37,807 nucleotides of DNA. Origin: Chlamydiales bacterium. GTDB lineage: Bacteria; Chlamydiota; Chlamydiia; Chlamydiales; JBDQID01. The position numbers and the translations under genes were made by a program. Shown here in pieces: positions 1-31,930 of this stretch. The stretch covers positions 1 to 37,807 of the forward strand of contig JBLFWS010000009.1 in the NCBI GenBank assembly GCA_047611865.1, given 5' to 3'. Each line of letters starts with the position of its first letter. Position 1 is the first letter of the stretch. The notes below the pieces were generated by a model, which was given only the letters and a program-made list of their open reading frames with translations, made no database searches and was not told the DNA's origin.

Positions 1-568
1 CTAGATCTTTCAAAAACCTCAGTTTTTTTCCTTGGTCAGCTGAAACAGTTCGTGGGTCTATTTCCATAGCTACTTCGCTGCTAAAGTCTATGGAAAAGGA
101 TTGCTTGATATGATCGAAAAGTTTTTGAAATTGATCTTCTGTTAGTTGTGTCGGGGTGCCACCACCAAAATGGATTTGGCGAACAGTGTGTTCTTTTTTC
201 AAAAGCTTTGTGACGAGGTCAATTTCCTTAATTAAATGATCCACATACTTGTCTTGAATTTGCATATTGCGGTTCAAAGTTACAGAACAGCCGCAAAAAA
301 GGCACATTCTACGACAAAAAGGGATGTGGAAATATAGAGAGAGGTCTTGGGCTACTTTATCAAGTTCCTGGATCTTGTTTATGTAGGACAACTGAGGCAT
401 GGATTCCCATTCAGGAGCTGTAGGATAGCTTGTGTACCTGGGTAGTGGGCTATTGAGTTTTTGCAACAAGTCAATATCCAAGTCAACAGATTGTTCATAG
501 GGTTGACGATAGATATTTTGAAAGCCTTCTTCTTGAAGGGGATTTGCTGGGAACTGGGTATTTGTCAT
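1..568 (-). CDS. hemN: Oxygen-independent coproporphyrinogen III oxidase (radical SAM), 5' part; gene runs off the window start
   Basis: Not in the ORF track. Manual translation from ATG at 568 gives PRYTSYPTAPEW, LYFHIPFCRRMCLFCGC (CxxxCxxC) and IHFGGGTP. Lies directly downstream of hemE. Confidence 0.93.
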   Translation of the reverse strand, partial: MTNTQFPANPLQEEGFQNIYRQPYEQSVDLDIDLLQKLNSPLPRYTSYPTAPEWESMPQLSYINKIQELDKVAQDLSLYFHIPFCRRMCLFCGCSVTLNRNMQIQDKYVDHLIKEIDLVTKLLKKEHTVRQIHFGGGTPTQLTEDQFQKLFDHIKQSFSIDFSSEVAMEIDPRTVSADQGKKLRFLKDL

Positions 569-28314: not shown

Positions 28315-29712
28315 ATGACTCTTGATAATGAATTAAAGGTTTTAAACATCGGCAGTCCTTTATTTAAGGAAGCCTTGGAAGAACAGAATGTTTTTACAAC
28401 TCAGCTCAACTGGAAACCCGTTGCCGGTGGCAACCCTGAACTTATTAAAGCCCTGGATAAAGTGCAAAATTCAGATCTTATAGATAAAGCAAATGAGAAA
28501 GCCATTAAAAGACTACTGTCATCAAAGCCAGTTCTTGCTGGAATGGCTTTAGCGGGAGAGGTTATTCCCGATATGACAGCTACAACAATCCTTCATGCGG
28601 GGCCTCCGATAGACTGGGAGAGAATGTCTGGTCCTCTACGTGCTGCGATACTTGGGGCAATGGTATTTGAAGGGCTGGCTGATGATTTGAAGGCTGCTGA
28701 GAAAAGAGTAGAGGCTGGGGATATCACCTTTTCACCCTGTCATGAACATCAAGCAGTGGGGCCAATGGCTGGGGTGACAAGTTACTCGATGCCTGTTTTT
28801 ATAATAGAGAATAAAACTTACCGCAATAAAGCTTTTTGTACTGTTAACGAGGGATTGGGGAAAGTCTTACGCTATGGGGCAAATAGTGAAGAAGTAATTC
28901 GTCGACTACTTTGGATTAAGGAGGTTCTTTATCCTATTTTGAAAGAGGCTATTTCTAACTTAGACGAAATTGATTTGAAGGTTGTGATAGCTCAAGCTTT
29001 GCATATGGGTGATGAAGGCCATAACCGCAATAAAGCAGCGACTTCTCTGATAATCCGTACTCTTTTACCCGGCCTTCTTTCTGTGGATTGTCCTCGAGAT
29101 AAGCTTGTTGAGGTTTTGAAATTTATGAATGGAAATGATCACTTTTTCCTAAACCTTTCAATGCCTACAGCTAAGGTTTGTTTGGATGCGGCAGACAATA
29201 TTGAACACAGTACTATGGTAACCTGTATGGCCAGAAATGGAACAGATTTCGGAATCAGAATTAGTGGTTTAGCAGGCAGATGGTTTACAGGACCTGCAAA
29301 CTTTGTAAAGGGACTTCTATTTCCCGGCTATACAGAGGATGATTGCAATCCTGACATTGGGGATAGTTCAATTACGGAAACCTTTGGTATTGGAGGTTTT
29401 GTCATGGCTGGAGCTCCAGCAATTGTGCAATTTGTTGGGGGCACTTCTGATGATGCCCTGAATTATACAAGGAGTATGTATGATATTACTCTCACACAAA
29501 ATTCGGCATTTTCTATTCCTACGCTAAATTTTAAGGGATCCCCCACGGGAATTGATTTGAGAAAGGTTATTGAATTTAATCAACTTCCAGTAATCAATAC
29601 GGGGATTGCCCACAAGGTTGCAGGGGTTGGAATGGTGGGAGCTGGTGTTGTTTATCCACCCAAAATTTGTTTTGAAGAAGCTTTGAAGGTTTTTGCAGCA
29701 TCTGAGGCCTGA
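28315..29712 (+). CDS. DUF1116 protein (YahG / AllG-YlbE family), carbamoyltransferase complex subunit
   Basis: ILHAGPPI, PCHEHQAVGPMAG, NEGLGKVLRYGA, MGDEGHNRN, MARNGTDFGI, DIGDSSITET and PVINTGIAH. YahG-type N-terminal KVLNIG...WKPVAGGN segment. Confidence 0.93.
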   Translation: MTLDNELKVLNIGSPLFKEALEEQNVFTTQLNWKPVAGGNPELIKALDKVQNSDLIDKANEKAIKRLLSSKPVLAGMALAGEVIPDMTATTILHAGPPIDWERMSGPLRAAILGAMVFEGLADDLKAAEKRVEAGDITFSPCHEHQAVGPMAGVTSYSMPVFIIENKTYRNKAFCTVNEGLGKVLRYGANSEEVIRRLLWIKEVLYPILKEAISNLDEIDLKVVIAQALHMGDEGHNRNKAATSLIIRTLLPGLLSVDCPRDKLVEVLKFMNGNDHFFLNLSMPTAKVCLDAADNIEHSTMVTCMARNGTDFGIRISGLAGRWFTGPANFVKGLLFPGYTEDDCNPDIGDSSITETFGIGGFVMAGAPAIVQFVGGTSDDALNYTRSMYDITLTQNSAFSIPTLNFKGSPTGIDLRKVIEFNQLPVINTGIAHKVAGVGMVGAGVVYPPKICFEEALKVFAASEA

Positions 29713-29722
29713 CAATCTTAAG

Positions 29723-29767
29723 ATAGTTTGGAGTGCTGCAAAAAGAGCACTCCAAATTATATTATTT
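29723..29767 (+). terminator. Terminator-like hairpin after the DUF1116 gene
   Basis: ATAGTTTGGAGTGCT-GCAAAAAG-AGCACTCCAAATTAT followed by an AT-rich tail. Confidence 0.7.
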
Positions 29768-29941
29768 AGGTCGAGTATTAAAATTACAAATGCCCGATTT
29801 TTTGATCTTTTGTGGCATTGACGAAGCCTTCATGAGGAACGAAGTTCCGCTACAGTAATAGCCTAGTTCGAAGTGAGCCCTTGGCGAACGCAGGGCTAGG
29901 AAAGGAACAAGTTGAGGTATTTGAGCGCTGAAAGTGCGACA

Positions 29942-30692
29942 GTGCGCTTGTGATGGTATACGATAAGAGAAGTGAGAGTCCTCTTCAAGAAATGTTGCAA
30001 TCTTGCAGCTGAAAGTAACTGCGTCACCGTGAGGTGGAGAGCAACTGGAAGCGGATATTCAGGCCGTAGGATAACGAACTCGATTCGGTTCAATAACATG
30101 GCGAGTCCCTCTGTCGGACGACGAAGCCTGAAACTCAGTACTCACGATAAGCAACTATCATCGATGAGTGCATGTTATTGGGTGGTTGGAGATGGCATGA
30201 ATAGAAGGTCGTATACAGTAAGCAAGGATACCTTACTCTGAATTGTGACAGAGTAAGGAGTCAGAGCCCGCATAGTACTGAAGATACAGATTGTGTCGAA
30301 AAGTATGGAAACCAAAGCCATACCGAGGGAAGACGGGTAGGAAAGTAGATATTGAAAATATAGAAAGATGGAATCTCGGAGTGACAATATATCTAGACAA
30401 GAGATAGAGAAACAAACCAGATATACAGACAACATAAGGCAAACGAGCAACCTAAGATGTCGCTGGGAATGGGTCGAACCATCAATCTGGATAGACGATA
30501 TGTTGACAGCTCTGGAGACGGAGTGAAAGGTGTATTCTTCGCGAATTTAGGACTCTTCACAATGGAAAAAGCCAGAGTCTTAGAGCTAGCGTGCCGATCC
30601 CGATGAGGAAACTACTAACTGGAGAGCCGTATGCGTTAATAGCGCACGTGCGGTTCGGAGGGAGGGGTGGCGAAATCCATCCCTACCTCTAT
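29942..30692 (+). mobile_element. Group II intron (AGC triad, IIB-like 3' end), 751 nt, with its RT ORF internally deleted
   Basis: 5' GTGCG at 29942. Domain V GAGCCGTATGCGTTAATAGCGCACGTGCGGTTC at 30624-30656. Domain VI with unpaired A30685, 8 nt from the 3' end ...CTACCTCTAT. Removing it restores the host palindrome. Confidence 0.9.
30368..30606 (+). pseudogene. Remnant of the intron-encoded RT/maturase (N- and C-terminal ends fused)
   Basis: ATG 30368 frame gives ...RWEWVEPSIWIDDMLTALE. After a frameshift it reads GVKG joined directly to FFANLGLFTM...CRSR*. These resemble the start and end of bacterial IEPs; no RT domains (YADD) remain. Confidence 0.75.
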
Positions 30693-30964
30693 CAAAAAAG
30701 TCACTAAGTCTTTTTGTGTCGCACTTTCAGCGCTTATAATTACGTGTGGGTCTATTCCTAGCCCTGCGCTCGCTAAGGGCTCACTTCGGACTAGGCTATT
30801 GGTGCGGCGGAACTTCGTTCCTCATGAAGGCTTCGCCTACGCCACAAAACAGCCAGGTGAGTGCGCATCATTAACGGCTTGGCTCGAGTATAAAATTAGG
30901 TGAGTTACAAGCCGATTCAAAAGTAAGACAAAATGCTCCAAAATCAACGTTCCGCTATTTTAAT

Positions 30965-31930
30965 TCACGAACTAGTTCCAATTAGAGTTTTCTCAGGAAC
31001 TTCGACCTTTCCCAAAAGTAGTCCTAGTATTGCCATGCGCACGTAAACACCATTTTTTGCTTGCTTGAAGTATTTTGCTCTTGGATCAGAGTCAATTTCT
31101 GTATGGATTTCGTTGATACGTGGGAGGGGATGCATAATGCAAAGGTCCAGTTTTGCATTTCTTAGTATTTCATTGTTTACTTGGTAGCGATCTCTGACCT
31201 GTAAGTAGGTCTTTTCATCTTCAAACCTTTCTCCTTGAACTCTGGTTACATACAAAACATCTAAATCTTCGATGGCAGCTTCTAAGTCACTGACTTCGTC
31301 AACACGATGACCCTCCGATCGGAGCTTATCGACGATGTGAGCAGGCATTTTTAAGCTGGGATGGGAAATGAAAACAAAGTGTATAGGGAAGAGATTTAAA
31401 AGGCTGCACAGAGAATGAACTGTACGGCCGAATTTTAAGTCACCGAGTAGACCAATTTTAAGATTTTCGAGCTTTCCTTTTTCTCTAGAGATTGTGTAGA
31501 GATCTAGGAGGGCTTGGGATGGGTGCTGATTGGGACCATCACCTGCATTTATTACTGGTACATCTGATGTACTGGATAGTTTGTCTACTGAAAATGGGTC
31601 TGGGTGTCTTGTAACGATGATATCAGCATATCCGCTAATGACTTTTCCCATATCTTCAAGGGTCTCCCCTTTCATTGCTGAGGTGGAACCTCCACTCTCA
31701 ACTGTGATAACACTTCCTCCAAGTTTAGTCATGGCTGTTTCAAAAGAAAGCCGAGTACGGGTACTCGGCTCAAAAAACAGTGTGGCTAAGATCTTCCCCT
31801 TTAAAAGAGGAAGATCGATACCCTTGGAAATATTATCCTCAACATATTTTGATGCATTCAAAATCAGGTTTATGTCGTTAAGACCTAACTCATCTGTTGA
31901 TAAGAGATGCTGAGAATTCAATTGGGTCAC
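30965..31930 (-). CDS. pyrB: Aspartate carbamoyltransferase catalytic subunit
   Basis: FFEPSTRTRLSF, KGETLED, NAGDG..HPSQALLD, GDLKFGRTVHSL, TRVQGERF and MHPLPR. Confidence 0.95.
   Translation of the reverse strand: MTQLNSQHLLSTDELGLNDINLILNASKYVEDNISKGIDLPLLKGKILATLFFEPSTRTRLSFETAMTKLGGSVITVESGGSTSAMKGETLEDMGKVISGYADIIVTRHPDPFSVDKLSSTSDVPVINAGDGPNQHPSQALLDLYTISREKGKLENLKIGLLGDLKFGRTVHSLCSLLNLFPIHFVFISHPSLKMPAHIVDKLRSEGHRVDEVSDLEAAIEDLDVLYVTRVQGERFEDEKTYLQVRDRYQVNNEILRNAKLDLCIMHPLPRINEIHTEIDSDPRAKYFKQAKNGVYVRMAILGLLLGKVEVPEKTLIGTSS

Follow-up and report, generated by a model that had tools for sequence, protein, structure and literature searches.

The window analysed here, a stretch of 37,807 nucleotides from a Chlamydiales bacterium, carries a 751-nt group II intron (29942..30692, +), and this copy very probably belongs to a young multi-copy family of an environmental chlamydial genome that has lost most of its open reading frame, inserts beside small hairpins as IIC introns do, prefers the G-rich strand and relies on an RT acting in trans. 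That the window copy is a genuine group II intron is confirmed by its domains V and VI (DV and DVI), the covariation of its exon-binding sequence EBS1 and the further copies in the genome, which go beyond chance. It starts with GTGCG (GUGCG) and ends with CTAT, has the GUGYG 5' end of group II introns and a bulged DVI adenosine 7-8 nt from the 3' end, and its domain I carries an exon-binding loop; the sister copies are 756 nt long. The Rfam model RF00029 for DV/DVI is matched end to end at 30622-30692 (46.1 bits, gathering score 40; model positions 1-77 of 77), which bears out the ribozyme ends, DV and DVI recognised in a preliminary description that was made from the sequence alone. The Rfam search proposed there thus succeeded for Intron_gpII and failed for the D1-D4 models, which gave zero matches in the window even at E up to 10. 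The fold of domain I, which the same description had wanted confirmed, is conserved: an RNAalifold prediction for domains I-II from seven sequences has 61 pairs, 37 of them with compensatory changes. Of 227 columns without variation among three full-length relatives, the window copy preserves 183, at an overall identity of about 65%. The minimum free energy fold of the whole intron has z = -2.70 (20 shuffles), a value of little use for group II architecture. The features of the window copy and its surroundings are collected in Table 1.

Table 1. Features of the intron copy and of the palindromic repeat around it (positions in the window).
Feature	Position	Strand	Remarks
Palindrome left arm (5' exon)	29808..29941	+	~291-nt repeat element; inverted repeats; paralogous copies elsewhere in the genome
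Mini hairpin	29925..29937	+	GCGC-TGAAA-GTGC; directly upstream of the insertion, at the IIA/IIB IBS2 position
IBS1	29937..29941	+	CGACA, complementary to EBS1 UGUCG
Private A	29971..29971	+	G in 9/9 other copies; public runs read G
Private 5-nt deletion	30032..30033	+	GGTGG present in 8/8 other copies covering the site
EBS1	30112..30117	+	UGUCG(G); terminal loop of GGC-GAG...CGAA-GCC, a conserved hairpin of domain I; pairs with the 5' exon over 5-6 bp
N-terminal IEP relic	30368..30533	+	First ~50 codons; ORF 30368-30526; frameshift near the end (…WEWVEPSIWIDDMLTALE-GVKG)
C-terminal IEP relic	30534..30606	+	Last ~24 codons; FFANLGLFTMEKARVLELACRSR, then stop
Domain V	30624..30656	+	33 nt; AGC triad 30625-30627; AC bulge; terminal loop not a GNRA tetraloop
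Domain VI	30657..30692	+	Bulged branch-point A 30685; private C>T close to the 3' end retains pairing as G-U
Palindrome apex, start of 3' exon	30693..30716	+	First base C, candidate IBS3
Palindrome right arm	30717..30849	-	Same hairpin and CGACA^C target on the minus strand, empty (caret, insertion point)

The window copy lies between an AllG-family gene (28315-29712, +) and a convergently oriented carbamoyltransferase gene (30965-31930, -). Directly 3' of the AllG-family stop there is a 19-nt inverted repeat (window 29719-29764) that looks like the terminator of this gene. Because the putative terminator is located upstream of the palindrome, the intron would be transcribed only via read-through or from an unknown promoter.

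The intron does not encode an intact IEP. The earlier reading that the gene had collapsed to about its first 50 and last 25 codons agrees with the matches to the IEP termini of relatives. With the full-length IEP of genome G267 as the tblastn query, 30389-30514 corresponds to residues 14-46 and 30466-30603 to residues 412-449 (46% identity), and in sister copies residues 427-449 are matched at 74% identity. The N-terminal relic matches the relatives' RWNWVE..IWT..ML.AL.NGVKG.KWFS, with the frameshift just before GVKG, and the C-terminal relic corresponds to their WPN.YFANLGLFTME...ACRSR. A scan at the level of the phylum Chlamydiota found matches in 14 of 400 scored genomes, the source genome (G000) counted. 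Full-length relatives are present in other Chlamydiota, with lengths of 1850 nt (G078), 1845 nt (G267) and about 1845 nt (L050). The IEPs of G078 and G267 contain RVT_1 and GIIM domains and are recognised as group II RT/maturases, and a domain scan of both found no nuclease domain.

The relatives have neighbours of their own. The G267 relative (L045, contig G267:C238) comes after a hairpin, immediately 5' of a HEARO RNA (105-339, minus strand; RF02033, 85.5 bits, gathering score 83). The G078 relative follows a hairpin at a distance of 5 nt, just 3' of a TnpB-like ORF (Cas12f1-like TNB domain, 1.8e-17). Given these neighbours, the landing sites of two relatives are hairpins of IS200/IS605-type elements. 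At about 150-236 of G102:C6 (L048), two near-identical hairpins, ATCGCGGAAGCGAT and GTCGCGGAAGCGAC, are found about 65 nt apart upstream of a decayed relative, and they may represent another hairpin repeat family that serves as a landing site.

The window copy itself is probably inactive for both splicing and mobility, judging from lesions in conserved helices of domain I. The private A at 29971 disrupts a conserved hairpin, whose loop-closing G-C pair is lost (pair 30/40 is GC in six sequences and AC in one). The deleted GGTGG, which is also read in high-depth contigs of four public runs, belongs to a segment that corresponds to the epsilon-prime junction in the alignment with the Rfam model D1D4-3, and after its deletion one of two stacked conserved helices cannot form. 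Six further substitutions are private to the window copy.

Other copies, for which the preliminary description had proposed a BLASTN search, are numerous. The intron has 19 BLAST matches in the genome, among them 10 5' junctions and 9 3' junctions, mostly located at contig ends. Identity to the window copy is 93-98%, and several sister copies at contig ends match each other exactly over their overlap. In three public DNA runs the intron contigs have 12.5-14.6x the depth of flanking single-copy contigs, and single contigs of 292-367 nt reach about 13x flank depth in public runs; contig depth is not a copy number, and our figure of about a dozen copies is based on the end counts and the depth taken together. 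All five copies that cover the breakpoint of the ORF deletion (C9, C97, C127, C20, C270), at five different loci, have it in common, and therefore the intron spread after the gene had been lost. The fragment on C86 retains about eight additional IEP residues (DHKAWPNA) on the upstream side of the breakpoint, evidence that a longer form once existed in the lineage. The repeats that flank the introns are only 73-91% identical to those of the window, which indicates that the intron burst is much younger than the repeats. Some copies are damaged: the one on C97 lacks intron positions 266-426, and those on C20, C86, C127 and C271 are fragments. The C97 copy (C97:5766-6354, minus strand) is 589 nt long, its missing part comprises domains II and III and the end of domain I, and it is found at a proper target with both junctions intact. 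Other internal intron deletions of about 167 nt are present in the public runs.

The junctions define a simple target. All ten 5' junctions end in CGACA or CGGCA, nine of the ten have a clear 4-5-bp hairpin just upstream (read by eye; weak at the C20 fragment), and all nine 3' junctions have C at +1. The mini hairpin that had been reported just upstream of the site in the window is indeed present. Positions -7 to -13 vary between the target families used by near-identical introns, which argues that there is no IBS2. The flanks fall into at least three unrelated families. The first (F1) is the palindrome family of the window, and the second (F2) is another palindrome family (C61, C153, C83, C254 / C127, C86); in both, the intron is inserted where the long stem meets the apical loop. 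The intron on C66 is placed at the outer mini-hairpin of an F1-like repeat. Other flanks are those of the 5' fragment on C20, which is outside palindromes and has the weak hairpin, and the 3' flanks on C139 and C66. The earlier proposal that the intron targets a repeated palindrome is right in that the window copy sits in one. The target is the small hairpin together with CGRCA^C, a module common to at least two palindrome families, and not the palindrome as such.

The exon pairing is supported by covariation. The stem pairs of the EBS1 hairpin covary in the seven-sequence alignment, and the hairpin aligns to the corresponding one of D1D4-3. In five relatives the EBS1 has changed together with the end of the 5' exon: AGCCUC with GAGGCU in G267 (6/6 pairs), AGCCUU with AAAGCU in L050 (5/6), CAUCUC with GAGGUU in G078 (5/6), CUGUCG with CGAGAG in G102 (5/6) and ACCUAC with GUAUGU in G175 (5/6). 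There is thus one mismatch each in four of the five cases, and the chance of five or more pairs out of six is about 3% per case by our own arithmetic. In all five relatives with a 5' junction, a hairpin is found upstream whose end is 4-7 nt from the site. The covariation of EBS1 and IBS1, which extends over six lineages, and the conserved hairpin support the candidate EBS1, TGTC(G) at 30112-30116, of the preliminary description. The confirmation it had also envisaged for EBS3 did not follow: seven alignment columns covary with the +1 base and none can be assigned, 30185 and 30208 of the window being positionally the most plausible candidates.

The genome contains further occurrences of the target module. 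A repeat that is never occupied, AAAAAAATGTGAGCACCAGCAGGTGCGGCA^CTCACTCAG, carries the hairpin and CGGCA^C; its copies are at C7:39277, C15:7044, C46:734, C52:15799, C96:12690, C103:6635, C126:8958, C268:3050 and C205:5183, and eight of these nine are on the G-rich strand, so that the repeat itself is strand-biased. A connection of the target hairpin to IS200/IS605-type transposases was considered and dropped for the source genome: Y1_Tnp has five matches there at four loci, no GCGRCAC is found within 700 nt of Y1_Tnp, and a search of the genome for a TnpB-type domain gave no match.

The palindrome in the window has outer arms of 95 nt that are 89% complementary (29808-29902 with 30755-30849) and inner arms that match at 18 of 18 positions (29924-29941 with 30717-30734). 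Excision of 29942-30692 had been predicted to give GCGACA^CAAAAA, and this junction exists in the empty paralogous elements at C16:20417-20730, C4:21331-21641, C40:21342-21513 and C253:72-366. On their left side these elements read ...GTG(C/T)GACA or ...GTCCGACA, followed by ^CAAAAA, and on their right side ...TTTT(T)G followed by TGTCG(C/G)AC, or, in C253, ...TTTTCTG followed by TGTCGGAC. The same target is also present and empty on the minus strand of the right arm of the window's palindrome (30717^30716), as had been described. An empty allele of the window's own site was not found, since no contig joins 29941 to 30693 in four public runs and the other joints belong to other repeat copies. 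The genome has eight instances of the exact F1 motif. An intron follows the motif in four of them, the remaining four being the empty arms that face an intron within the same element, and either arm type of the palindrome can be occupied. The right arm of the otherwise empty element on C40 contains a second, internally palindromic repeat of about 490 nt (C40:21514-22006), which is also present on C39, C64, C191, C12 and others. The source genome thus holds several families of long palindromic repeats that are nested in one another.

These palindromes offer a site on both strands, and in nearly every case the occupied arm is the one with the target on the G-rich strand. At all ten 5' junctions the sense strand of the intron is the G-rich strand (one-sided binomial, 0.001). 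The same applies to 15 of 16 contigs; only the 3' fragment on C127 deviates, where the skew is weak (-0.034). As a rule, the G-rich strand is the template of lagging-strand synthesis; contig GC skew serves here as no more than a proxy for the direction of replication. A census by regular expression of the hairpin followed by CGRCA^C gave 41 sites, of which five are occupied, all on the G-rich strand, 25 are empty on the G-rich strand and 11 are empty on the C-rich strand. Many good target sites are therefore unoccupied. The association with the strand is not significant in this census (Fisher, p = 0.30), because candidate sites as such are more frequent on the G-rich strand, and the census is a poor test as the expression misses imperfect stems. 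Class C introns are reported to insert preferentially into the lagging-strand template (PMC8919778), and introns whose IEP lacks the endonuclease are described as priming from replication forks (PMC4424553). Endonuclease-less introns primed in this way would be expected to show such a distribution, with all ten 5' junctions on the G-rich strand.

Taken together, these data suggest the following history. The ancestor would have been a retroelement of about 1.85 kb that encoded an endonuclease-less RT/maturase, as the full-length relatives surviving in other Chlamydiota do. A single deletion may then have left about 50 N-terminal and 24 C-terminal codons, and the resulting 756-nt derivative would have retrohomed to about a dozen sites. 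For recognition, EBS1 UGUCG is proposed to pair with CGRCA at the end of the 5' exon, next to a C as the first base of the 3' exon, and the small DNA hairpin immediately upstream would replace the pairing with IBS2. As the target module is found at the stem/loop boundary of long palindromes, most copies are near a palindrome apex. The intron would enter the arm whose target is on the G-rich strand, by the skew rule the lagging-strand template, presumably by reverse splicing into single-stranded DNA at replication forks with the nascent strand as the primer. Strand-specific insertion accounts for only one arm of each palindrome being occupied.

It is less straightforward to say which class the family belongs to. 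It could simply be a divergent member of the bacterial class C (IIC) whose ribozyme is not unusual, which we consider quite possible while leaning slightly against it. The IEPs of the relatives are closest to IIC enzymes among solved RTs (6ar1 1.1e-66, 7uim 8e-65; IIB T.el4h 1.2e-49; IIA LtrA 6.3e-46). Their domain I aligns to D1D4-3 over the GUGA hairpin and the GG.GAG...CGAA.CC hairpin of EBS1, at 26.0 and 23.7 bits and thus below the gathering score of 32; we take RF02001 to be the IIC-type D1-D4 model of Rfam. In addition, the targeting of hairpins, the IEP devoid of an endonuclease and the small ribozyme speak for class C. Domain I and the IEPs together indicate a IIC-like lineage and not an unrelated convergence. 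Against ordinary membership are the scores below the threshold, the missing match in the window and several features of the ribozyme itself. The features listed for class C include CGC in place of AGC, a distal DV stem 2 bp shorter than in IIA/IIB, an 11-nt epsilon-prime bulge with AGGAA, an IBS1-EBS1 pairing of 3-4 bp, and, without EBS2/IBS2, a stem-loop at the IBS2 position with insertion after terminators or inverted repeats (PMC1702495). The family, however, has AGC in the window copy and in 4/4 lineages aligned. Its DV of 33 nt fits RF00029 over the full length; the distal stem is 4-5 bp long. At the place of AGGAA, cmscan aligns the model's UCUGAAGGAA to GGUGGGGAGCAA in G267, and the sister copies have GGGUGGAGAGCAA. 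The EBS1 pairing is 5-6 bp here and 5-6 of 6 in the five relatives. The hairpin in place of IBS2 is shared with class C, being weak only at the C20 fragment and alike in all five relatives. The earlier characterisation as IIC-like yet with an AGC triad is thereby upheld, with the upstream hairpin, the short IBS1 and no conserved IBS2 on the one side and AGC on the other. Judged by sequence, the family seems to work like a IIC intron, and membership of class C is not established.

The source of the RT is the other point on which readings differ. RVT_1 and tblastn searches found no cognate IEP in the assembly, which is 95.5% complete. RVT_1 matches are present only on C18 and C28, are 31-37% identical to the IEPs of the relatives and each have a stop or a frameshift, and tblastn adds an RT-like fragment on C79 (33% identity over residues 69-160). 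The one on C18 (26387-27714) is a frameshifted group II RT of a different lineage inside an intron that matches the Rfam model D1D4-6 at 123.5 bits; the one on C28 (164-1198), also a group II RT of a different lineage, has an in-frame TAA. The lack of an intact IEP in the window and of a cognate one in the assembly agrees with the view that the intron is non-autonomous, whereas the full-length, RT-encoding relative that a BLASTN search of the genome had been hoped to reveal did not turn up, only relics and broken RTs. An RT/maturase would thus be needed in trans for mobility, a step that we infer because the assembly holds no cognate gene. In a public run, the contig across the deletion breakpoint has a depth of 849.8 compared with 869.4 and 834.5, essentially the full depth of the intron, which leaves little room for a full-length copy. 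Nevertheless, given that public-run contigs drop rare variants and that the assembly has no contig under 3058 nt, a full-length copy may exist unassembled.

The missing gene and the full-depth breakpoint contig could also mean that the expansion has ended and that every copy, the near-identical ones included, is now immobile and decaying after loss of the helper RT, in line with the damage to the window copy and to those on C97, C20, C86, C127 and C271. We regard this as possible but rather doubtful, because most copies appear identical over hundreds of bases, so that the burst must be very recent, and because a unique IEP segment of 1.1 kb between repeats would fall under the 3-kb contig floor. 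It is highly improbable that a single insertion into a palindromic repeat was multiplied at the DNA level by transposition or duplication of the repeat: most copies are in repeats that are themselves multi-copy and nested and the genome has Y1-type transposase genes, but the flanks of the intron belong to three or more unrelated families, one copy sits at the outer hairpin of a different element, and the intron occupies either arm type and is more conserved than its flanks (with discordant intron and flank trees already suggested). Elements without the intron are present as well, and the Y1 transposase genes have no hairpin motif beside them.

The preferred reading, a young family mobilised in trans, has some implications. 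Tentatively, and as an unlikely extension, the family might be an unclassified lineage that combines domain I and targeting of the IIC type with a DV and a full EBS1 of the IIA/IIB type, and whose about 13 ORF-less copies have no cognate RT. If so, the lineage would be a living intermediate between IIB-like and IIC introns, and the many copies without a cognate RT would imply either a very recent loss of the helper or mobilisation by a non-cognate RT. The palindromes provide a natural test of strand-specific insertion, since each presents the same site on both strands. Hairpin-forming repeats can serve as safe landing pads, and such landing pads break short-read assemblies, with most copies ending up at contig ends.

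Targeting of hairpins, proliferation of ORF-less introns and strand bias are each already known; new is their combination, in a chlamydial host, of a ribozyme that fails IIC-defining features with palindromic repeats as landing pads and no helper in view. In the open-access literature, we found no report of group II intron families in Chlamydiota and none of hairpin targeting outside class C except that of group IIB introns in integron attC sites (Sonbol and Siam 2021, PMC7923331). Hairpin-guided targeting has been described for class C only, and the family does the same without several IIC features. The attC introns are assigned to CL1 or class E, are single or truncated copies and, according to their authors, a role of upstream structure has not been reported for IIB. 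They share with the present family non-IIC ribozyme features and a palindromic, hairpin-forming target; here, however, a hairpin is found before the site across the whole lineage, and domain I resembles that of IIC introns.

The closest parallel for the way of spreading are the ORF-less TeI3 introns of Thermosynechococcus elongatus, described as mobilised by TeI4 IEPs (Mohr et al. 2010, PMC2882425). The accounts agree in one ORF deletion with identical breakpoints, N- and C-terminal remnants, a frameshifted remnant and later proliferation, and the breakpoint common to 5/5 copies and CGRCA at 10/10 5' junctions are what such a spread would give. TeI3/TeI4 differ in being IIB (CL) introns with an endonuclease-containing IEP, sequence-specific homing sites and helper IEPs in the genome (PMC2882425), whereas here no related IEP-encoding intron was found in the same genome, no helper being in sight, and the target is a structure plus 5 nt. 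With class C, as described for B.h.I1 and IIC-attC introns (PMC1702495, PMC4424553), the family shares the hairpin at the IBS2 position without EBS2/IBS2, the short IBS1 with a single +1 base, the small ribozyme, intergenic sites, an endonuclease-less IEP (in the relatives from Chlamydiota), the bias for the lagging-strand template, the architecture of domain I and the closest solved RTs. In contrast to class C as reported, it has AGC, a 33-nt DV that fits the general model, an EBS1 of 5-6 bp, no AGGAA and no ORF, and it uses the stem/loop boundary of long palindromes in place of terminators and attC sites.
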